From Escherichia phage EC.P2, in the sequence record PQ631072.1: 64,000 nucleotides of DNA; one strand, written 5' to 3'. The notes under the pieces are model-generated. The model searched no databases and was not told the DNA's origin. It saw nothing but the letters and a program-made list of their open reading frames with translations. A program made the position numbers and the translations under genes. Below, in pieces: positions 4,688-21,420 of the stretch (the stretch's first letter is position 1; the number at the start of each line of letters is the position of its first letter).

Positions 4688-4954
4688 TTACTCCGCAATC
4701 TGAGCCATGAATTCACGTAGTTCAGAAAAACCTCCTACGTGGGTTAGATGTTCACCATCTTCCACAAAAATTTGAGGGAAGGTACGTGGCAGAACACCTG
4801 TTTTCTCTAAAACCAGATTCTGAATCTGATCTAAAGAATAGTCTTCATCTAAGGTAAGGTATTTAAAATCCTGTTCACGCTGTTCTAGCAGAATTTTAGC
4901 GTTAGTGCAGAAAGGACAATTTGGTTTACCGTAGATAATAAAATTCATTTTCAC
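4688..4954 (-). CDS. glutaredoxin (likely RNR reductant)
   Basis: 88 aa, CPFC active-site motif near N-terminus (IYGKPNCPFC). Confidence 0.7.
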   Translation of the reverse strand: MKMNFIIYGKPNCPFCTNAKILLEQREQDFKYLTLDEDYSLDQIQNLVLEKTGVLPRTFPQIFVEDGEHLTHVGGFSELREFMAQIAE

Positions 4955-5781
4955 TCCTTGTTTAAAAGTATAGTTAAAGTTCTTACAATACCGCTATCAA
5001 CACTTCGCGGATTTAAAGTAGGATCTGTTTTTAAATAAGATGTTGCTGGTCTGACTGCTTTAGAATTATAGGTTGAAGCAGATACAGGATTAACTGTAAC
5101 AGATAAATCTATAACAAGAAATATCTTTCGTGCAAAATCATACCAAGAAATATAATCTGCACCTGCATAGTGTACAATTTTACTATTTACACCATCTTTT
5201 ACAAGTTTAAAAATTGTTTCTGCCAGATCAGGTGCATAAGTAGGACATGATAAATGATCACATACTACATTAAATTCTTTTTGACCACCGTTGTAGCGTT
5301 CCAACATAGTTTTCAAAAAGTTATGTCCAAACTCACTATAAACAGAAGCTGTTCTGATAATAAGTGCTGTAGGACAAACTGTTTGTACTAAAGTTTCACC
5401 TAATTGTTTACTGTAACCATAGGTGTTCAAGGGGTTTGTTTTACTATCTTCTGTGCCAGCGACATGCCCATCAAAAACATAGTCTGTTGAAATATGTACA
5501 AACTGTATCAGTAAATCATTACATGCTTTGGCAATGTTTGTTGCACCGTATGCATTAACATTTATACAGGTGTTAACATCTTCTTCAGCTTTATCTACTG
5601 CTGTGTAAGCCGCACAATTCACAACAACATCAGGCACGTGCTGTACAAGACTATTCATAACATCTTTAAAGTTGGTAATGTCTATATCACTTGCTTCAAT
5701 CAAAATAACATCTTCTGGCGCAACTTTTGCCAAAGACTGTCCTAATTGACCTTTTGAACCAAAGATTAAAAATTTTGTCAA
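4951..5781 (-). CDS. rmlD: dTDP-4-dehydrorhamnose reductase
   Basis: MTKFLIFGSKGQLGQSL...NCAAYTAVDKAEED...HISTDYVF...YGYSKQLGE parallels E. coli RfbD. Confidence 0.8.
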   Translation of the reverse strand: MTKFLIFGSKGQLGQSLAKVAPEDVILIEASDIDITNFKDVMNSLVQHVPDVVVNCAAYTAVDKAEEDVNTCINVNAYGATNIAKACNDLLIQFVHISTDYVFDGHVAGTEDSKTNPLNTYGYSKQLGETLVQTVCPTALIIRTASVYSEFGHNFLKTMLERYNGGQKEFNVVCDHLSCPTYAPDLAETIFKLVKDGVNSKIVHYAGADYISWYDFARKIFLVIDLSVTVNPVSASTYNSKAVRPATSYLKTDPTLNPRSVDSGIVRTLTILLNKE

Positions 5782-6332
5782 AATATGATCTCCTTTAGTG
5801 TTTTGGCTTGCTGATCTTTTTGTGACAAGATAGGTTTAAAATTAATATCATTAAAGATTAAATCAAAACCCCAATCTATATTGATATCTGGATCATTCCA
5901 CGCAAGACTACACTCTGAAGTCGGATCGTAATATTCTGTGCATTTATATTCAAAATCAGCAATATCGCTAATCACAACAAAACCATGAGCGAAACCAGGA
6001 GGAATCCAAAATTGTGTTTTATTCTTTTCAGATAAGAGAACACCTACCCATTCTCCAAATGTTGGACTACCAACCCTAATATCTACAGCAACATCATAAA
6101 CTTCACCACGAACACAACGTACTAACTTCCCTTGTGGGTTTTTCTTTTGAAAATGAAGCCCACGTAGAACTCCTCGAATAGAACGTGAATGGTTATCTTG
6201 GACAAAGTTTTGTTTACCTATGTATTGATCATATAAAGCCTGATTAAAACTTTCTAAGAAAAAACCACGTTCATCTCCGTAAACGTCAGGTTGAATGATC
6301 AACAAATCTTCGATTTTTGTTGCTTGAATCAT
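5778..6332 (-). CDS. rmlC: dTDP-4-dehydrorhamnose 3,5-epimerase
   Basis: 184 aa cupin; DERGFFLESFN...LRGLHFQ...FWIPPGFAHGF motifs typical of RmlC. Confidence 0.8.
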   Translation of the reverse strand: MIQATKIEDLLIIQPDVYGDERGFFLESFNQALYDQYIGKQNFVQDNHSRSIRGVLRGLHFQKKNPQGKLVRCVRGEVYDVAVDIRVGSPTFGEWVGVLLSEKNKTQFWIPPGFAHGFVVISDIADFEYKCTEYYDPTSECSLAWNDPDINIDWGFDLIFNDINFKPILSQKDQQAKTLKEIIF

Positions 6333-6344
6333 TTAACTCCCCCT

Positions 6345-7214
6345 TTATTTTAATTTAAGTAAATACTTACCGTAGTCTGTTTTACTTAAAACCTCTCCAG
6401 AACTTCTTACAGAGTCTAAAGTAATCCATTCATTTTTAAAAGCAATCTCTTCTAGGCATGCAACCTTCATCCCTTGTTGCTTTTCTATTGCATGAACAAA
6501 TTGAGATGCTTCCATAAGACTTTCATGTGTTCCTGTATCCAGCCAAGTGAAACCCCTTCCTAGTTTACAGACACGTAAAGTCTTTTCTTTCCAGTACATC
6601 TCATTTATATCTGTAATCTCTAACTCCCCTCTAGCAGAAGGTTTAACGCTCTTAGCTTTCTGTATAACAGAATTATCGTAAAAGTACAAGCCTGTGATTG
6701 CATAGTTGCTTTTTGGTGTTTTTGGTTTTTCTTCAATACTCACCACTGTACCTTCAGAATCAAATTCAACAACACCAAATCTTTCAGGATCATTTACGTG
6801 ATACCCAAAAATATTAGCTCCACCATTCTTTTCAATATGTTCTTTAGCAGAATCTAAAATGCTACCAAAACTCTGACCAAAGAATAAATTATCACCTAGC
6901 ACAAGTGCTACAGAATCTTCACCAATAAAGTTCTCACCAATAATAAAGGCTTCTGCTAAACCTTTTGGGCTGTTCTGTACTGCATACTGTAGGGAAATAC
7001 CAAAAGAAGAACCATCACCTAGAAGATTTACAAAATTAACTTGATCTTCTGGTGTTGTAATTATTAGTATTTCCCTAATTCCAGAAAGCATTAGGACAGA
7101 GAGTGGATAATAAATCATAGGCTTATCGTAAATTGGTAATAGTTGTTTACTAACCCCTTTAGTAACTGGGTAAAGTCTTGTTCCACTACCACCTGCTAAG
7201 ATAATACCTTTCAT
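6345..7214 (-). CDS. rmlA: glucose-1-phosphate thymidylyltransferase
   Basis: [39 protein letters not shown] nearly identical in pattern to E. coli RfbA N-terminus. Confidence 0.85.
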
Positions 7215-7222
7215 ACTCCTCC

Positions 7223-8212
7223 TTAAACTTTATTTTCCCACCACTCTTTGTTATCTACATACCAATCAATGGTTGAATAAAGTTTTTCTTCAAATGTGCC
7301 TTTAGCTTTCCACCCTAATTCCTTTTCAATCTTATAAGGATTCACTTCGTATCTTAAATCATGCCCAGGTCTATCTGTAACCATCTCAATGAGGCTACAA
7401 GCATCTGTTTCAGATGGATACACCGCATCCATATAATCACAAATCATATAGATTACATCAATATTAGTTCTAGGGTTTCTGCTTCCAATATTATATGTTT
7501 CTCCAGGTTTGCCTTTAGTTACTACTAGGTGTAATGCTTCTGCGTGATCGTCAACGTATAACCAATCTCTTACTTGAAGACCATTACCATAAACAGGGAT
7601 TGGTTTATGCATCAAGATATTTGTTATCGTTTTAGGTATTAGTTTTTCTGGATGATGATATGCTCCAAAATTATTTGAACAATTTGTTATAACTGTCGGA
7701 ACACCATAAGTACGATGCCACGCTCTTACCAAATGATCGCTTGCTGCCTTAGATGCAGCATATGGACTACTTGGCTTATAAGGATTCTGTTCTGTAAACG
7801 GATAATCCCCTTCTTCCAGATCACCATACACTTCATCTGTTGAAATATGATGGAACATTTTAAGATTTGATTTATCTCCCATTAAACGAACAGCTTCTAG
7901 AAGATTAAATGTCCCAACAATATTTGAATTTATAAAAACACTCGGTGATGCTATTGAATTATCTACGTGACTTTCTGCTGCAAGATGCATTATATAATCT
8001 GGATTAACATCTGCCACAATCTTAGCAGTTAACTGCGCATTTGTCAAGTCAACACGACAAAACTTTACATTAGGTGTTTCTGATAAATTTCTAGGGTCTG
8101 AAGCGTAACCCCATTTATCTATAACGTAAATATCATTCTTAGTATTTTTAGCCAGGAAACGAACTACTGCACTTCCAATAAAGCCTAAACCACCTGTTAC
8201 TAAGTATTTCAT
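7223..8212 (-). CDS. rmlB: dTDP-glucose 4,6-dehydratase
   Basis: [19 protein letters not shown]...[13 protein letters not shown]...[11 protein letters not shown] matches RfbB/RmlB SDR pattern. Confidence 0.85.
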
Positions 8213-9091: not shown

Positions 9092-9278
9092 ACTTGGCTA
9101 CACCATTAACTATAATATGACCGCAAGACATAACTCCTAGCCAATGATCACCATTCTTTTTTAAACGTTTGCCGTAAACATCACAGAAACCATTCTGTAA
9201 TTCGGAAGCCTCATAAGAGGCTCCCTTTTCGAAAACGTCTTTGAAGTCAGAAATTAATCCAACACAAAGTAGTTTCAT
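9060..9278 (-). CDS. hypothetical protein (72 aa)
   Basis: ORF immediately downstream of nrdB. Confidence 0.4.
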   Translation of the reverse strand: MKLLCVGLISDFKDVFEKGASYEASELQNGFCDVYGKRLKKNGDHWLGVMSCGHIIVNGVAKFEIIKGEKDD

Positions 9279-10363
9279 TAGAAGTCTAACTCCTCGTCAT
9301 CACTTACATCTTTATTTGCTGAATTCAGTTTGTAAGCTGTAATTTGGATCTCCTGTGCTGCTGCTTGAATTTGATCTGGATTTAACCAAACATCCATCCA
9401 AGGCAGTGGACTTTTCTTCGGTGCACGGAATTTGTGTTTCATTTTCAGTCTGCGATAGATAGGTGCAGCATTGAAGTAAACCCAAAGTTTGAACAACTCT
9501 GCGTTACCACCAACGATAACCCTTCCTTCACTAAACAAATAGTCACACCAATCTTCCTCTTGTCCAACTACCGTATCAAGAATTTCTGTCAGAACGTCGA
9601 TATTATCTTCGTATACTTTTCTCCAAACAGGATCTTTCAGCAGTGCATCAATAATAGCATAATCCATTTTAACGTGCAATAGTTCATCCAACATAATTTT
9701 TTGAATGAGTTTAGCTGCACCTACAAACAATTGCTGCTCTGCTAAGGCAAATGTTGCAGCAAAAGAGGATATGAATTGAATGCCTTCCAGACCGATAAGT
9801 GCAATCATTCCTTTCAAGATCAGTAGACGAAGGTTATCATCCTTCTCAATCAGACCTAGAGCATATTTATGTCCTGCCTCTGCCAGATCACCCATTATCT
9901 CTTCAACTATACCCATCCTCTGGAAGATTCTTTCATTCTCCATAATCTGATCGATAACTTCATTTGGATTAGGGATACACTGACGAATAATTTCAGAATA
10001 TGTCAAAGCGTGTAAAACTTCCATTTCTGATTGCTTCATCATCATTGCACATGCTTCGTTGTTGCTTAAAAATGGTGCAAACAAAGTGATAATTGATTTA
10101 GCAAGTGAATCATTTTCCCATTGGAAAGATAGGTTTTTGATCATAACATCATAGTTGCTTTTAGAACAAGCTACGAAATCTTTTCGTGTCTGATCTAAGT
10201 CTACTTCGTTTTCATCCCAATCTTGCTGTTTTTGTAGTTTGTACAGACGATGCATTTCTGGGTATGTTACATTAATAGAATCAAAAATACCTAACTGTTC
10301 TCCCAAAAATACAGGATAGAAACCTTCTTTGTAAGTGTCGTTGTATAAATTAATCGCTGCCAT
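9278..10363 (-). CDS. nrdB: ribonucleotide reductase class I beta subunit
   Basis: 361 aa; diiron-carboxylate ferritin-like pattern and size, adjacent to nrdA. Confidence 0.8.
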   Translation of the reverse strand: MAAINLYNDTYKEGFYPVFLGEQLGIFDSINVTYPEMHRLYKLQKQQDWDENEVDLDQTRKDFVACSKSNYDVMIKNLSFQWENDSLAKSIITLFAPFLSNNEACAMMMKQSEMEVLHALTYSEIIRQCIPNPNEVIDQIMENERIFQRMGIVEEIMGDLAEAGHKYALGLIEKDDNLRLLILKGMIALIGLEGIQFISSFAATFALAEQQLFVGAAKLIQKIMLDELLHVKMDYAIIDALLKDPVWRKVYEDNIDVLTEILDTVVGQEEDWCDYLFSEGRVIVGGNAELFKLWVYFNAAPIYRRLKMKHKFRAPKKSPLPWMDVWLNPDQIQAAAQEIQITAYKLNSANKDVSDDEELDF

Positions 10364-10725: not shown

Positions 10726-12987
10726 TTACATCTTACAAGCCTCACAACCAGATTCTTCATCTTCTTGAGCGAGTGAGGTTGCCGATTTTGTTCTACTATT
10801 TAGATAGTACAAAGATTTACCACCAAGTTTTGCAAACTGAAGGATATATTGCATTTCTGATTTAATGGATAAACGACCACCTTCCATTTTAGAATAGTCA
10901 ATCCACTTATCACATGATGCACCTTGATCTAAGAATTTAGTCAATAATCCATATGCTTCAGCCATATCTTTATCTGGCGTATCCCAAGCCGATTGGTAAA
11001 TATCTTTTAGTTTATCATAGTCTGGCACAATAAACAGGACATTACCTTTTTGGCTTTGTTTATAAACTATAGTATCACGTACAGGATACACAGAGTTAGT
11101 CGTATTACTTACAAGACTACTGGACTCATTCGGAGCAATAGCTGCTAATACGCTATTTCGGATACCGCCTTGTGCAATGATATCTTGTCGTAAACCTTCC
11201 CAATCCATTTTAAGTTTAAAATTGCCAATATCGTCTACAGCTTTAGCGTAGGTGTCAATAGGCAACCATCCTTCAGGCCATTTGGTTTTATGCATCCATT
11301 CTGCATTACCCTTCTCTTTTGCCAAACGAAGAGAAGCTCTTGCTAACCAGTAATAATGCCTTTCTGCTAATTCGTGAATTAGTTTTTTGCCGTAAGGATC
11401 TGAATAAGTAACAAAATTACTTGCCAGATAATGTGCAAGGTTTGTAATACCTACACCGATAGACCTACGTGCTTTAGCAGTGATTTCGTTATGTTTAAAC
11501 GGATACTGCATTGTTTCAATAACATTATCAATAGTTAGAACTGTATAGTATGCAACATCTTCATATTCTTCTGGTGTAACACGACCAGCTACAATAGAAG
11601 ACAGGAAGCATAATGCCAATTCTTGATCTTCTGTATTCTCACCTGTGAAAAGATCAGTCATATTGTGAAATGCTTTCGTAGGTAAGAAAATTTCTTGACA
11701 CAAGTTTGACTGATAAATAACATCCTTAAACGGAGTATGCCTATTAGCATTATCCGCAAAGAACATATAAATACGTCCTGTCTCTGCTCTTTGTGTAATA
11801 ATTTCTGCCAGAAGATCTCGTGCTTTTACGAACTTTTTCTTAATTCGTTTGCGACTAACTTTTTCATATACTTCTTCAAACTCTTCCTCGCTTTTATAAA
11901 GCGCCTCATAGAGTTCTGGTGCTTCGTCATAACTAACTAGCATCCAATCTTTACCTTTTGCTGCACGGCGCAGGAAAGCATTGTTTACTACGATAGAGTA
12001 ATCAAGTTTATCTACTCGTTTTTCACTAACAGTAGTTGGGTTTTTCAAACGTACCAGATCTTCAAAATCAGGTTCTAATATTGTAAACGTTACTGTTGCA
12101 CTTCCACCACGACTTGCTTGTTTTGATGCTCCAACACTTGTTTCCATCCATTTCAGATATGGTAAAAGACCACCGTGAACGATACGGTTGTTCTTAACAC
12201 CTTGTCCTGTGGCACGGGTTTGGAGGTTAACACCAATACCTGCATTATTCAATGTATATTCATGCGCAAGATAGTTAGCAATTGCTAAAGATTCTGCTGT
12301 ATCATCTGCTCTAAACAGACAACAAGAAGCACTACCTTTAATCTTAGTACGCAAAGTTGTTAAATAAGGTGATGGTAAATTAATCTTAAGATCACTTACG
12401 TAGGTATATAGACGTTTAATGTCTTCTACTCTGCGATCTTTTGGTTGGATTTCCATTACCTTCATTGCTACACCAATGAATAAAAACTGTGGTGATTCAA
12501 AAACAACATCATTGATCGCATCTTTCACAAGATACTTATCAACCATCTGGCGCAGTACGGAATAACCATAAGTTAGGTTTTTATCGTGATTGACAATCTT
12601 ACCAATCTCAATAATTTCTTCTTCTGTATAATCCATTTTTCCCCAATAGCCTTTACTTACAGACATATTGTAGAAATCCAGGAGGGAGGGGATATTGTGA
12701 TATCCCCCATGAGCCTGTTTATAAATCATACCAAGAAGTAACCGACCTGCCATATCACTATATGCCTGATCTTTCTTATCAATACATGCTGCTATCATAG
12801 CTTTATGTAAATCACGAGTAGGCACACCATCGTAACAACGTTTAACAGCTTCAAGTTCAATTTCAGACCAATTTAATTTACCAGCAGCAAACTCTGACCA
12901 TTTACGAAGTTTTTCTGGATTAAATTCTTCTTTCTTGCCGTTTGTTTTTGTTACATAACGGATAGATTTGCTTAGATACTGAGTCAC
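10726..12987 (-). CDS. nrdA: ribonucleotide reductase class I alpha subunit
   Basis: 753 aa; N-terminal ATP-cone-like region and C-terminal tail with paired cysteines (ESGCEACKM), typical NrdA size. Confidence 0.85.
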   Translation of the reverse strand: MTQYLSKSIRYVTKTNGKKEEFNPEKLRKWSEFAAGKLNWSEIELEAVKRCYDGVPTRDLHKAMIAACIDKKDQAYSDMAGRLLLGMIYKQAHGGYHNIPSLLDFYNMSVSKGYWGKMDYTEEEIIEIGKIVNHDKNLTYGYSVLRQMVDKYLVKDAINDVVFESPQFLFIGVAMKVMEIQPKDRRVEDIKRLYTYVSDLKINLPSPYLTTLRTKIKGSASCCLFRADDTAESLAIANYLAHEYTLNNAGIGVNLQTRATGQGVKNNRIVHGGLLPYLKWMETSVGASKQASRGGSATVTFTILEPDFEDLVRLKNPTTVSEKRVDKLDYSIVVNNAFLRRAAKGKDWMLVSYDEAPELYEALYKSEEEFEEVYEKVSRKRIKKKFVKARDLLAEIITQRAETGRIYMFFADNANRHTPFKDVIYQSNLCQEIFLPTKAFHNMTDLFTGENTEDQELALCFLSSIVAGRVTPEEYEDVAYYTVLTIDNVIETMQYPFKHNEITAKARRSIGVGITNLAHYLASNFVTYSDPYGKKLIHELAERHYYWLARASLRLAKEKGNAEWMHKTKWPEGWLPIDTYAKAVDDIGNFKLKMDWEGLRQDIIAQGGIRNSVLAAIAPNESSSLVSNTTNSVYPVRDTIVYKQSQKGNVLFIVPDYDKLKDIYQSAWDTPDKDMAEAYGLLTKFLDQGASCDKWIDYSKMEGGRLSIKSEMQYILQFAKLGGKSLYYLNSRTKSATSLAQEDEESGCEACKM

Positions 12988-13767: not shown

Positions 13768-14739
13768 TCACCATTTTGTATGGTTCGTCAAAAGTTGACG
13801 ATGTTGAATCCAACCACAGAAGTTTCCACTCCACAAACGATGTTTACGATCCATATGTGTAATACCTTCTTCCCAAGAGGAAGGGAACGGAGGAATATTA
13901 ATACCACCTTTCTGTTGTTTTAATCCTGACAAATCCATTTCTTTCATTGGCGTTGCCTGGTGTTCAAACGGAGATGCATGTACCTTTTGTCCAGACAGCA
14001 AACGAGAATAGATATCCAATGCTTTATCTTTAGTATCATTCAACTTACGATAACTTACCTGAGCGCAACAAGAAGCTGAAATAGCTTTTGCTTCATCTTC
14101 TGTCAACACTTTCTCGTTGGAGAAGGTTTCACCCAAGAAATAACGGATCATACCAGTTTCTGGATCTCGATCACGATTAACGTAAGGTGTATGCCATTCC
14201 CCTGGGAAAAGAAGATATGGTTCAGAAGATTCATACAGTTTTTTAATTTCTTTAGCAAGAGCCTCAATAGTAGGATCTGCATCAGCATCTACGCGCAACC
14301 ACAAGAAGTTTTCTAGCTCTGTAGTGGTTACTACAGTCTTCATACGCTGAAATGGTTCTAGTAGGCGGTTTGCAACCTGTTTATGATAACCAGCAAGGGC
14401 AAACTCTTCTGCAAAACGTGCAGCACTTAGTGCAGCCAAGTCCCACCATTCTTTTGCAGTATAACCTGCATCAATCAGGGCATCGTGATCTGTGCCTTTA
14501 TCTTGCATACCTGGTTGGTTAGCACCAAAACGATAAGGACGTGCTGGAGATTGCCGTACCATTTCAATCAGAGTTTTAACAGGGATAGCTCGACTTGATG
14601 CGGCATTACGAGAAAACAAACGATGCGTCATCAATTCAGAGTGAATGATTCGAGGATATTCAAGTTCAAAGGTAACAATATCCTTACCTTCGGATGTTTG
14701 AGAGTGTGCAATAATTTTTGCTGAAATAGAATTTGTCAT
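13768..14739 (-). CDS. thyX: ThyX-like flavin-dependent thymidylate synthase (divergent)
   Basis: 323 aa; HSELMTHRLFSRNAASSRAIP resembles the ThyX RHRx7S signature but with Thr in place of the first Arg. Confidence 0.6.
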   Translation of the reverse strand: MTNSISAKIIAHSQTSEGKDIVTFELEYPRIIHSELMTHRLFSRNAASSRAIPVKTLIEMVRQSPARPYRFGANQPGMQDKGTDHDALIDAGYTAKEWWDLAALSAARFAEEFALAGYHKQVANRLLEPFQRMKTVVTTTELENFLWLRVDADADPTIEALAKEIKKLYESSEPYLLFPGEWHTPYVNRDRDPETGMIRYFLGETFSNEKVLTEDEAKAISASCCAQVSYRKLNDTKDKALDIYSRLLSGQKVHASPFEHQATPMKEMDLSGLKQQKGGINIPPFPSSWEEGITHMDRKHRLWSGNFCGWIQHRQLLTNHTKW

Positions 14740-14748
14740 TATTTCTCC

Positions 14749-15339
14749 TTAAGGTAGTAAAATACTTTCAATTTCTTCCCACTGATTATCTAAACCAGTG
14801 ATAATTACATTAGGAAGTTTCTTTAACTCTTCCAAATATGGATCTTCGTAAATAGTGTTGAAATATATTTTCAACGTTTCATCTGGAAACAGGACAAGAT
14901 TTTCAGCCCTATCGTCAATAGTTACATCGCAAGGTAATAAGTATTTTTCTTTTGTTGCGAAAAAGCCATTACCAGATGTTCTACTAAAATCCACTTTATC
15001 TAAAGATCGTGTTACGTGTCTATATTTAGAACTAAGGTGTCCACCCTTAGTGTGGCTCGCTATAGATATATTAGCTCCATTTGCAATTATACGATGAACA
15101 ACATCTGTACTATTAGGTACTACTCCCATAGTATCATATAGATGTTGGTTATCCCAAAAAGAGTAAGGATCTACACCAAATTGCTTTTTAAAATCAGGGA
15201 AATATTTCGTAATATCATAGTGCACAGTCTTATGTGTCTTATCAAATTTGATATTAGATCTACTTACCGCATTTAACCAATTTAACCATTCTATATCCGC
15301 TGGAGCTATTACTAAATCCCAATCACATACTAGACGCAT
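14749..15339 (-). CDS. HAD-superfamily phosphatase, probable 5'(3')-deoxyribonucleotidase
   Basis: Start trimmed to ATG at 15339 (AGGAGA RBS); N-terminal MRLVCDWDLVIA fits HAD motif I DxDx(T/V); C-terminal DD motif (VTIDDRAENL). Confidence 0.5.
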   Translation of the reverse strand: MRLVCDWDLVIAPADIEWLNWLNAVSRSNIKFDKTHKTVHYDITKYFPDFKKQFGVDPYSFWDNQHLYDTMGVVPNSTDVVHRIIANGANISIASHTKGGHLSSKYRHVTRSLDKVDFSRTSGNGFFATKEKYLLPCDVTIDDRAENLVLFPDETLKIYFNTIYEDPYLEELKKLPNVIITGLDNQWEEIESILLP

Positions 15340-15886
15340 TATTTCTCCTGTTATAACATTTTCTACACATTGTTTCGTAAATGTCTTCTCCTCCAATAAC
15401 AATCTGTTCTTTAGAGTCGATAAGTCTAGCATTGAAAATAGCTTTTCTTCCACATTTACAAATGCTTTTCAATTCTGTAATTGAATCTGCTATGGCTAAT
15501 AACCGTTCAGAACCTTCAAACAATTCTGTAGCAAAATCTGTTTTAAGTCCATAGCAGAATACAGGAATATCGTAATTGTCTACCACATCTCCAAGAATGT
15601 CAACCATATCTTTAGTTAGGAATTGTGATTCATCCACAAATACTGCATCTACTGGATTCTCTTTAAGTTGTGTATAAATTTCCAGCATATCTTCTTTTGT
15701 TTTAACTGGTTTTGCTTCCTCTTTAATACCTATTCTAGAAGCAATAGCACCACCAGATCTGGTATCTAAAGCTGAAGTTAAAAGAAGAACTTTCATATTT
15801 CTTTCTTTATAGTTCCAAGCTGTTTGTAGAAGATGTGTGCTTTTACCACTGTTCATCGGACTATATCGGAAATAAAGTTTAGCCAT
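15323..15886 (-). CDS. tdk: thymidine kinase
   Basis: MAKLYFRYSPMNSGKSTHLLQ P-loop and C-terminal CxxC zinc ribbon (CRKCYNRR) typical of Tdk. Confidence 0.85.
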   Translation of the reverse strand: MAKLYFRYSPMNSGKSTHLLQTAWNYKERNMKVLLLTSALDTRSGGAIASRIGIKEEAKPVKTKEDMLEIYTQLKENPVDAVFVDESQFLTKDMVDILGDVVDNYDIPVFCYGLKTDFATELFEGSERLLAIADSITELKSICKCGRKAIFNARLIDSKEQIVIGGEDIYETMCRKCYNRRNNASSM

Positions 15887-15931: not shown

Positions 15932-16507
15932 TTATTTCTCTTCGTCAAGAAGAATTTTTACTATTTGTTTTCTTCGCTTACTTACTGTACTTTCTGGTGA
16001 AATTCCGCGCTTCGTTAGCCAATTTTTATCCTTTTTAGACTGGCATAAAGCTATCGCTTCCTTCTCCGCTTTTGCTTCCCTGAATGTTATATCGTGCTTG
16101 TCAGCATAAGCTAGGATAGCGTTACACTGCTTACAAACTACACGCAGGTCGTCTTCTGTTACATACAATAGGCGTAAAACAAAACTTGGGATATCTTCAT
16201 AACAGGTTAATGTACCTGCTGCATTAATATGGTCTACTTGAAAGTCTTTCATACCTCCTGTATGTCCACACAATTCACATTGACAATTCCAAACCTGTTT
16301 CGGTTTGCCTGTTTTCTTATCTAAAACTACATTGCCATCTTTATCCAACCTATCGGCTTTAAATCGTACAGATTGGATCTTTTTTATCTTATTCGGGTGT
16401 CTCACCCATGCTTTCCTTAAGCAACCTCTTAAATATGTATAAAAGGCTGCTTGAGTTTTCCAAGGTGTTCCATCTCCCCAAATAACTTTAGGTTCTTTAT
16501 TTTCCAA
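15932..16507 (-). CDS. HNH endonuclease
   Basis: CQCELCGHTGG...VDHINAAG...CKQCN matches HNH zinc-finger nuclease motif. Confidence 0.6.
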   Translation of the reverse strand: MENKEPKVIWGDGTPWKTQAAFYTYLRGCLRKAWVRHPNKIKKIQSVRFKADRLDKDGNVVLDKKTGKPKQVWNCQCELCGHTGGMKDFQVDHINAAGTLTCYEDIPSFVLRLLYVTEDDLRVVCKQCNAILAYADKHDITFREAKAEKEAIALCQSKKDKNWLTKRGISPESTVSKRRKQIVKILLDEEK

Positions 16508-20697: not shown

Positions 20698-21420
20698 TTA
20701 AGCAATGATTGCTGCGATATTAGGTTTAACAAAGGTAGATGGTTTCATAATTTTACCTTTGTCATCAAAGAATACGTATACCTTTTGAACTTCGTTATAT
20801 ACAGCATGTACTCCAGTATAAGAACCTTCTGCACGATCTTTGCTTCGCATCTCGATAGCATCACACTCTTTTTCAAGAGCTTCAACAATATCCTTAGTTT
20901 CCCAAATAGCCAGGAGTTGCTTCTTGGTAGGATACTTGGACTCATTGCTATTCAACACTTCACGCATAACCTTCTTCTCGTTATAAACAGAACGCACCAA
21001 AGTATCTCGTGCCATACGTGTAAGTGTAAGAGACATTAGGGCAAATTGCAAGTCATTTTCTACCATTTTATCAAATTCAATGATAACATCGTAGATGTTT
21101 TCTGCCAGAACATCTCCTGTCGGCATTTCCAGAGCTTTATCAACACCTTCTTTACCAAAGAACATAAACGCCAGGTAGGATGCTACCACAAAAATATCTG
21201 CTGCTGCATCAAGTAATTCAACGTGATCATTTTCCTGTGCTGCTGCTTGGAACTCTTTTAGTTCTTCTCGTACAAAAGAAAGTTGAGCTTCAAACATCTC
21301 TTGAGTAAATTCTGGGGTTACGCCACCACGTGCCTTAGCATTCCAAGCAACAATTTGATCGGCAGCCTTGATAAAGAAGCTATTGTCCACTTTTACTTGT
21401 TTGAAAAAATTCTCGATCAT
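20698..21420 (-). CDS. MazG-like nucleoside triphosphate pyrophosphohydrolase
   Basis: EELKEFQAAAQENDHVELLDAAADIFVV matches all-alpha NTP-PPase EExxE...E...DxxxD metal-binding pattern. Confidence 0.55.
   Translation of the reverse strand: MIENFFKQVKVDNSFFIKAADQIVAWNAKARGGVTPEFTQEMFEAQLSFVREELKEFQAAAQENDHVELLDAAADIFVVASYLAFMFFGKEGVDKALEMPTGDVLAENIYDVIIEFDKMVENDLQFALMSLTLTRMARDTLVRSVYNEKKVMREVLNSNESKYPTKKQLLAIWETKDIVEALEKECDAIEMRSKDRAEGSYTGVHAVYNEVQKVYVFFDDKGKIMKPSTFVKPNIAAIIA

Follow-up and report, generated by a model that had tools for sequence, protein, structure and literature searches.

Does a ThyX-like protein that has lost the first arginine of the RHR signature still make thymidylate, or does it do something else? 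The question is raised by a gene of Escherichia phage EC.P2 (sequence record PQ631072.1), of which we analysed one stretch of 64,000 nucleotides (referred to here as the window). The gene lies on the minus strand at 13768..14739, is a homologue of phi92 gp078 and encodes a protein of 323 amino acids (aa). A preliminary description of this DNA offered two alternatives, namely a standard deoxythymidine monophosphate (dTMP) synthase or a ThyX-family paralogue making a modified pyrimidine. We consider it likely that the protein is a genuine dTMP synthase, with an activity that can be predicted from its relatives and setting, and that it belongs to a permuted subfamily of the flavin-dependent thymidylate synthases (ThyX).

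The signature itself is found at 14590..14628 (minus strand), where alignments to Thermotoga maritima ThyX give T38-H-R-X7-S48-S-R50 (THRLFSRNAASSR); residues 37-50 of the protein read MTHRLFSRNAASSR. T38 aligns with T. maritima R78, H39 with H79, R40 with R80, S48 with S88 and R50 with R90, so the first arginine of RHR-X7-S has been replaced by threonine, just as the preliminary description had it. Compared with the strict form of the motif, reportedly defined in 2002 by Myllykallio, T38-H-R-X7-S48 has one mismatch. When RHR-X7-S has been used as a filter, up to two mismatches were tolerated (PMC2826268). In an alignment of 126 diverse homologues, 37-77% identical to the window protein, threonine occupies this column in 121 sequences and arginine in 2, and H39, S48, R50 and A51 are present in every one. 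Threonine likewise fills the first motif position in 106 of the 110 motif matches among the 150 representatives listed. With these counts THR can be neither chance nor a sequencing error; to judge from the alignments, it is the signature of a large family and not a lesion or a one-off mutation.

That family is found well beyond this phage. A word-index search scored 8,000 candidates and returned 7,447 relatives, and an exhaustive HMMER search of 50%-identity representatives gave 4,968 clusters at E<=1e-3 and 1,493 at E<=1e-30. By tblastn, members are present in 1,034 cultured-phage records, including rV5-like, phi92-like and phAPEC8-like myoviruses, Vibrio phage ICP1, PAK_P1-like and KPP10-like phages of Pseudomonas, N4-like podoviruses and phiCbK-like Caulobacter phages, among others. 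In GenBank records the gene already goes by the names "putative thymidylate synthase" or "FAD-dependent thymidylate synthase". Against the Pfam Thy1 profile (PF02511) the window protein scores 37.1 bits (cut-off 24.8), with a match confined to positions 59-186 of the profile and residues 22-170 of the protein. A phmmer search of PDB sequences with the protein matched no solved structure at E-values up to 1; the link to solved ThyX is made only via fold comparison and profile-profile alignment. In the structure model, the protein is predicted to have the three-dimensional fold of ThyX. The confident model was obtained from the 126-sequence alignment, and the one built from 23 close relatives was poor, with a predicted local distance difference test (pLDDT) score of 71.

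The protein had also been described as unusually long, and its 323 aa do exceed the solved ThyX chains (216-258 aa including tags) by 70-100 aa. Where does this length come from? On the evidence of sequence comparison, it reflects a circular permutation together with a conserved C-terminal extension. The Pfam Thy1 profile and NCBIfam TIGR02170 both match only over their last two-thirds, and they do so on the first half of the protein. This ThyX fold core (residues 22-170, 14230..14676 on the minus strand) is delimited by Thy1 positions 59-186 and by an hhalign match of residues 10-179 to T. maritima 49-204; it is the counterpart of canonical ThyX from strand beta3 onwards, and among its residues are R125 (T. 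maritima R147), T140 (R165) and R149 (R174). A displaced module follows at residues 212-260 (13960..14106, minus strand), identified by hhalign and splice tests. It comprises two helices and the loop VH254-ASPFEH260, and matches canonical N-terminal residues about 17-59, including His53 and the HxxPFEH motif; the displaced segment AKAISASCCAQVSYRKLNDTKDKALDIYSRLLSGQKVHASPFEH resembles a stretch of T. maritima ThyX. Last comes the C-terminal extension (residues 261-323, 13771..13959, minus strand), with the motif GNFxGWxQxR, which is seen in the alignments A1, A2 and A3 and modelled at pLDDT 81-98. Its Arg314 (codon 13798-13800) is found in 126 of 126 sequences. Altogether, the added length has four sources: an N-terminal strand; the loop at residues 64-94, with the family-specific motif GxNQxGMQ and an invariant Met78; the connector, with the motif WHxPY and invariant His183 and Pro185; and the C-terminal extension.

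The permutation was examined by splicing and by tandem alignment. In the splice test, residues 212-260 were put directly before residue 21 and Pfam Thy1 was rescored, with the reversed segment as the control. Scores rose by 8.5-17 bits in four of four members, with coverage reaching profile positions 12-15, and the reversed controls gave no gain. The window protein went from 37.1 bits in its native form to 53.9 when spliced (reversed control, 33.2), and the distant relatives P0137, P0215 and P0233 went from 29.1 to 39.9 (control, 26.9), from 37.3 to 45.8 (control, 35.8) and from 29.8 to 40.2 (control, 24.6), respectively. Moving the entire C-terminal half in front of the N-terminus left the Pfam match no longer than before, owing to the roughly 85 residues that then intervene. 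When the family profile was aligned by hhalign with a single T. maritima ThyX (this sequence and that of Mycobacterium tuberculosis ThyX were checked against PDB chains), two hits were obtained: residues 10-179 with T. maritima 49-204 (score 42.4) and residues 216-272 with 17-71 (29.3). With two T. maritima copies in tandem as the target, they were replaced by one colinear alignment (query 10-272, score 55.7, E 3.9e-7) that crosses the junction, which is a classical signature of circular permutation. The structure model agrees: its elements run strand, helix, core, three short strands, two helices, HxxPFEH loop and extra region. As modelled, this is the canonical order rotated, and the canonical order itself (beta1-beta2, alpha1-alpha2, HxxPFEH, then core) is not found in the ThyX-like protein. 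Canonical ThyX (PF02511, TIGR02170), as in T. maritima TM0449, M. tuberculosis Rv2754c, Helicobacter pylori and PBCV-1 A674R, is non-permuted and carries the RHR motif, whereas the window protein is permuted and has gained a conserved C-terminal extension of about 60 residues and an extra N-terminal strand.

Was R78 lost alone? In the same 126 sequences, many T. maritima active-site residues are retained: H79 (window H39, in 126), R80 (R40, with 101 R and 8 K), S83 (S43, 114), N85 (N45, 123), S88 (S48, 126), R90 (R50, 126), R147 (R125, 125), N169 (N144, 125) and R174 (R149, 126) and, in the displaced loop, H53 (H254, 126), T55 (S256, serine for threonine, 124), E58 (E259, 119) and H59 (H260, 125). 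Others are consistently exchanged. R74 has become alanine or serine (window S34; 59 A and 48 S), Q75 glutamate (E35, 119), R78 threonine (T38, 121), Y84 arginine or lysine (R44; 84 R and 37 K), E86 alanine or serine (A46; 67 A and 37 S), Y91 alanine (A51, 126), N163 threonine or serine (T138; 91 T and 33 S) and R165 threonine (T140, 122). R78, as aligned, is thus one of several coordinated active-site replacements. Within the set that binds deoxyuridine monophosphate (dUMP), namely R78, R80, S88, R90, R147 and R174, five of the six are conserved and R78 is the one that has changed.

The roles of these residues in other enzymes indicate what has been kept. R78, R80, S88 and R90 are direct dUMP ligands (PMC3498832). 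In PolB, a UMP/dUMP C5-methylase of polyoxin biosynthesis (PDB 4P5A), the counterparts of R78 (Arg86) and E86 hydrogen-bond ribose O3', the phosphate is held by the counterparts of R74, Q75, S88, G89, R90 and R147, and the R174 and R90 counterparts read O2 and O4, respectively (PMC5003785). In reduced T. maritima ThyX, R78 is placed at flavin N1/C2=O, which it is described as stabilising, Y91 is the proposed general acid and H53 stabilises the folate (PMC11940539). On this mapping, the residues that read uracil, half of the phosphate clamp and the folate/flavin loop are kept, and the part that holds the sugar and faces flavin N1 is rebuilt. The near-invariant basic residues R30, R/K44, K120, R231 and R314 are presumably the candidates for the vacated roles.

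Such a pattern may also be read differently. Because the pocket has been remodelled in the half that accommodates the phosphate and the 3'-OH of the sugar, the protein might be a C5-methylase with a shifted nucleotide specificity (PolB, likewise, also accepts UMP), acting on another sugar or phosphate form or on dCMP. We think this unlikely. The readers of uracil O2 and O4, R149 (T. maritima R174) and R50 (R90), are invariant, so a uracil base is expected; further objections come from the genomic settings discussed below. As for PolB, it retains the canonical chain order, unlike the window protein, and it retains the counterparts of R78, E86 and Y91 (Arg86, Glu94 and Tyr99) where the window protein has them replaced. 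PolB belongs to a secondary-metabolite cluster and the window protein to DNA precursor metabolism.

Additional information on which parts of the chain matter comes from inteins. Relatives of about 630 aa with two matched stretches look like tandem duplications from which the permutation might have arisen; this explanation was rejected, since their sequences proved to contain intein insertions. Inteins are present in relatives of about 550-680 aa (P0132, P0139, P0141, P0142, P0238, P0164, P0206, P0231, P0248 and P0251), some of them also bearing HNH or LAGLIDADG-like endonuclease segments. Insertion took place independently at three points, each within a conserved motif: after His33 (IH|SE), after Arg40 (THR|xFSRN) and after His254 (VH|ASPFEH). 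Inteins typically occupy functionally critical sites of important replication enzymes. Their positions in the THR motif and in the displaced HxxPFEH loop therefore support the view that both would belong to one working active site.

Inteins also bear on the idea that the protein is a catalytically dead or regulatory relic of ThyX that binds only nucleotide or flavin. An incomplete ThyX motif and a score below the equivalog threshold are what one would expect of such a relic, but among sequences no more than 37-50% identical, upwards of 20 positions show 95-100% conservation, equivalents of the catalytic site included; moreover, inteins target the conserved motifs, and the family is both large and persistent (the 4,968 clusters noted above). 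We regard a relic as very improbable indeed.

A hint of an ordinary metabolic function also comes from outside phages. When one genome was scanned for each prokaryotic species, homologues turned up at 63 loci, about 24 of them in Eremiobacterota assemblies (Lustribacter, Velthaea, Baltobacteraceae and others), several of which are complete chromosomes (among the complete ones are OZ255842.1, OZ255707.1, OY968762.1 and OY969579.1). Neighbouring genes are conserved across the Eremiobacterota assemblies. In the Ca. Lustribacter chromosome OZ255842.1, for example, the homologue (L038:6001-6792) is preceded by genes for methylmalonyl-CoA mutase, GltX, GlmU, an MFS transporter and MsrA, and followed by those for ribosomal protein L25, phosphoribosyl pyrophosphate synthetase (prs) and UvrB. 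The Eremiobacterota proteins retain THR, SRNAASSRAIP, HKQxxNRxLEP, WHxP, HWSPFEH and GNFxGWxQYR. In this phylum the gene is apparently a vertically inherited housekeeping gene, and such a setting combined with a ThyX fold points to an essential metabolic role, which would be dTMP synthesis. Scattered homologues were also seen in Leptolyngbya PCC 7375, Mesorhizobium, Sphingopyxis, and metagenome-assembled genomes of Nanoarchaeota and Methanosarcinales.

Within the phage, the question becomes whether anything else could make thymidylate. Here we used the window and the complete genome of phage SD2, which is 99.5% identical to the window over a 4-kb query. Searches by tblastn with Escherichia coli ThyA, Dut, FolA and Tmk, T4 dCMP deaminase and two canonical ThyX proteins detected no ThyA, canonical ThyX, dihydrofolate reductase (DHFR), Dut, dCMP deaminase or Tmk in either sequence (all E >0.5), and none of these is listed in the SD2 annotation. 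The ThyX-like protein is hence the sole thymidylate synthase candidate of the phage in the window and SD2. ThyX chemistry produces no dihydrofolate, so a phage with no DHFR and no other thymidylate synthase is well matched to an enzyme of the ThyX type. With ThyA, DHFR, Dut, dCMP deaminase and Tmk all absent, the phage would rely on its host to supply dUMP, recycle folate and phosphorylate dTMP. Both an aerobic and an anaerobic ribonucleotide reductase are phage-encoded, as is a thymidine kinase; the gene has NrdA/B, glutaredoxin and this kinase as companions in a block for nucleotide metabolism, which favours a dTMP synthase. The same facts tell against a shifted nucleotide specificity: the context is one of deoxynucleotide metabolism (ribonucleotide reductase and thymidine kinase), a bacterial housekeeping role is hard to square with a product other than dTMP, and the tblastn searches found no other thymidylate synthase in the phage.

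The preferred reading, that of a dTMP synthase, also fits the immediate neighbours. The preliminary description spoke of a thymidylate-supply cluster, and this is borne out: the open reading frame (ORF) list of the window shows three tightly packed minus-strand genes, in which the ThyX-like gene is accompanied by a thymidine kinase gene (15323..15886, 187 aa) and by a candidate gene for an NT5C-like HAD 5'(3')-deoxyribonucleotidase (14749..15339, 196 aa). The HAD gene shares 17 nt with the end of the kinase gene, and its stop lies 9 nt ahead of the ThyX-like start, spacings that suggest translational coupling of all three. A promoter and terminator scan of the cluster found sites no more numerous than in shuffled sequence; one promoter-like site, which is a match to consensus only, lies just upstream of the kinase gene (15948-15921).

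By sequence, both neighbours resemble what was first described. The kinase matches PF00265 over nearly its whole length (185 bits, E 1.4e-54, profile positions 2-176 of 176), above threshold, and scores 240.7 bits against NCBIfam NF003300 (cut-off 195). Its translation contains a P-loop (NSGKST) and the C-terminal zinc-ribbon cysteines CxCG...CxxC, which makes its assignment as a type II thymidine kinase (PF00265) unambiguous at the sequence level. For the HAD protein, the mechanically called ORF (14749-15453, 234 aa) opens with a GTG that falls within the kinase gene, but the true start, the one given in the SD2 annotation, is Met39 (15339), and the product has 196 aa. The protein falls just under the Pfam NT5C threshold (PF06941; E 8.7e-5, 22.9 bits against a cut-off of 24.8). 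It begins MRLVCDWDLV, which contains the HAD motif I DxDxV as D6-W-D8-L-V, and it carries IDDR (motif IV). It corresponds to PHROG 420, whose function is listed as unknown, and is present in 497 phage records; no solved structure is detectably related to it by sequence. The pairing recalls the mammalian cycles of thymidine kinase and 5'(3')-deoxyribonucleotidase (cdN and mdN; NT5C), which likewise combine a thymidine kinase with an NT5C-type HAD phosphatase bearing DxDxV and IDDR. By analogy, the phage pair could regulate the dTMP pool, although its HAD protein, in contrast to cdN and mdN, scores below the Pfam cut-off and lacks a solved structure detectable by sequence.

Taken as a unit, the three proteins would feed and balance the dTMP pool during infection. 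Thymidine kinase would salvage thymidine, and the NT5C-like phosphatase would probably perform the opposing dephosphorylation, either to trim the pool or to recycle nucleotides. The 323-aa protein would convert dUMP to dTMP de novo on a ThyX fold, in a reaction that depends on flavin and methylene-tetrahydrofolate, and presumably in the form of a tetramer. In its chain, the canonical N-terminal module, with the folate- and flavin-facing His53, would have been relocated behind the catalytic core, and the C-terminal extension added. Uracil and half of the phosphate would be held by R40, S48, R50, R125 and R149, with His254 acting as T. maritima His53. R74, Q75, R78, E86, Y91 and R165, which in canonical enzymes make contact with flavin N1, the 3'-OH of the sugar and the remaining half of the phosphate, are replaced, and family-specific residues presumably substitute for them.

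In connection with its second alternative, the preliminary description pointed to a nearby rml operon. This operon is indeed there: rmlB-rmlA-rmlC-rmlD, the dTDP-L-rhamnose pathway, occupies 4951..8212 on the minus strand, with Pfam matches of 242-276 bits and a concordant SD2 annotation. By Pfam, RmlB is encoded at 7223-8212, RmlA at 6345-7214, RmlC at 5778-6332 and RmlD at 4951-5781, all on the minus strand. The complete rmlBACD operon and the glutaredoxin gene that follows it (4688-8212, minus strand) lie inside the DNA-metabolism block. Candidate targets of the rml products are phage DNA, the host surface and virion proteins. A complete dTDP-rhamnose pathway has been reported in the phi92-like and phAPEC8-like groups, and rhamnosylation of hydroxymethylated nucleotides by the rml genes has been proposed as speculation (PMC7552041). 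In our material, the rml genes were checked in the window and in the phi92-like relative SD2.

Could the ThyX-like protein supply the base for such a modification? It would then be a ThyX-fold paralogue that makes a modified pyrimidine, for instance 5-hydroxymethyl-dUMP by water capture of the exocyclic methylene intermediate, which the rml products would subsequently rhamnosylate. This is quite doubtful in our judgement. R78, which faces flavin N1, and Y91, the proposed general acid, are implicated in the reductive chemistry (PMC11940539), and both are replaced; yet the same active-site signature extends beyond the two phage groups for which rml genes have been reported, and into bacterial housekeeping loci. 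The operon is complete and only 5.5 kb away, a glycosyltransferase is annotated elsewhere in SD2 (at 63238-64212, outside the window), and rhamnosylated hydroxymethyl nucleotides have been suggested in print for such phages (PMC7552041). On the other hand, phi92-like phages are reported to stand out for their sensitivity to restriction-modification systems, dTDP-sugar genes notwithstanding (PMC8594841), and their genomes have been assembled at >=99% identity in dozens of independent records. A conceivable task for the NT5C-like nucleotidase would be to keep dTMP out; the thymidine kinase in the same operon is, however, a dTMP maker.

Comparison with known hypermodification systems leads the same way. 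Phage ThyA-family dUMP/dCMP hydroxymethylases (SPO1, ViI, M6 and T4 gp42) are likewise phage-encoded and folate-dependent, transfer one carbon to pyrimidine C5 and sometimes precede glycosylation, but they have the unrelated ThyA fold, unlike the ThyX fold here. Known thymidine hypermodification employs ThyA-type hydroxymethylases, DNA kinases and aGPT-Pplases (amino-acid:DNA transferases), and confers restriction resistance; these pathways bring DNA kinases, aGPT-Pplases or glucosyltransferases together with that resistance (PMC8989533), and neither feature is seen here. Specifically, no 5-hydroxymethyldeoxyuridine DNA kinase, aGPT-Pplase or ThyA-type hydroxymethylase is annotated in SD2, and tblastn found no ThyA. 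The whole permuted THR clade, having no R78, Y91 or E86, might alternatively use a different flavin-handling or reductive step, or yield a C5-substituted product that is rhamnosylated in the phi92-like and phAPEC8-like phages; to this, too, we give little credence. The rml and ThyX-like loci may also be connected in a more ordinary way: RmlA consumes dTTP as the carrier nucleotide, and a phage making dTDP-rhamnose therefore has an additional thymidylate demand. Of the two alternatives first offered, the dTMP synthase is strengthened by a family-wide THR and by the synteny in Eremiobacterota, and the modified-pyrimidine paralogue, with its rml-linked nucleotide modification, is left unlikely by an enzyme family wider than the rml-carrying groups and by the restriction sensitivity of phi92-like phages.

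Several observations nevertheless count against a dTMP synthase and temper our confidence in it. Against the NCBIfam thyX equivalog TIGR02170, the protein scores 35.9 bits (profile positions 60-206), below the cut-off of 87.9, and hmmsearch of PDB sequences with the close-relative profile A1 did not bring up solved ThyX at a significant level (E ~1). The tandem-target test gave no score gain with M. tuberculosis ThyX, so that its support for the permutation is not universal. Several residues considered important, namely R78, Y91, E86 and R165, are replaced, and no assay of any subfamily member was found in the searchable literature. Finally, restriction sensitivity is compatible with a small or partial modification, such as 5-hydroxymethyl-dU. 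With regard to complementation, one canonical thyX is reported to need microaerobic conditions in E. coli (PMC3498832).

The wider setting of the cluster is that of a phi92-like phage. A 4-kb stretch around it is 99.0-99.5% identical to the best 20 of 63 matching phage records, which include Escherichia phages SD2, PHB05, ECGD1, muut and phi92 itself; these relatives are classed as Justusliebigvirus, subfamily Stephanstirmvirinae. Four records named as 'Campylobacter phage' (MG065639, MG065645, MG065656 and MG065689, host Campylobacter jejuni) show 99.3% identity to this phage over 4 kb; their host label looks doubtful, and contamination or mislabelling is possible. By Pfam and the SD2 annotation, the genes of the minus-strand block serve replication and nucleotide metabolism. 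From low to high coordinates along the window, they are glutaredoxin (4688-4954), rmlDCAB, NrdB (9278-10363), NrdA (10726-12987), two small ORFs, the ThyX-like, HAD and thymidine kinase genes, an HNH endonuclease and exonuclease genes. The putative endonuclease is a 191-aa ORF (15932-16507, minus strand) that lies directly upstream of the kinase gene and is labelled an HNH (homing) endonuclease in relatives. It has CxxC...HH...CxxC spacing and no Pfam match at E up to 0.01, and resembles a free-standing mobile endonuclease that has lodged in the operon for nucleotide metabolism. Further along, 20698-21420 (minus strand) encodes a 240-aa MazG/PRA-PH-like nucleotide pyrophosphohydrolase (PF01503, 31 bits); given that no trimeric dUTPase is recognisable in the genome, it might be a source of dUMP or help to clean up the dNTP pool. 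The GC skew changes sign at about 28 kb of the window, where, with SD2 coordinates projected onto it, minus-strand early and metabolic genes give way to plus-strand genes; the change is an ordinary strand-bias effect.

The broad assignment of this gene as a thymidylate synthase is not new, since GenBank names already give it. What we did not find in the searchable literature is the permutation, the coordinated replacement of R74, Q75, R78, E86, Y91 and R165, the C-terminal extension and the housekeeping presence in Eremiobacterota. By its sequence features, the window protein would be ThyX-like in its working, yet it is not a canonical ThyX equivalog. This matters because ThyX is both a drug target and a mechanistic model of flavin-mediated methylene transfer, and because its textbook definition rests on RHR-X7-S and on residues such as R78 and Y91. 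Here is a clade of about 5,000 clusters that has neither R78 nor Y91, whose chain is permuted, and which occurs in the contexts expected of a thymidylate synthase. For the window phage, the basis for an exotic thymidine modification is largely removed, and the dTDP-rhamnose operon becomes a separate question. For the family, if its members are active, the clade would reveal what the ThyX active site can do without and which other residues may stand in, and annotation based on motifs or equivalogs would be under-calling thymidylate synthases.

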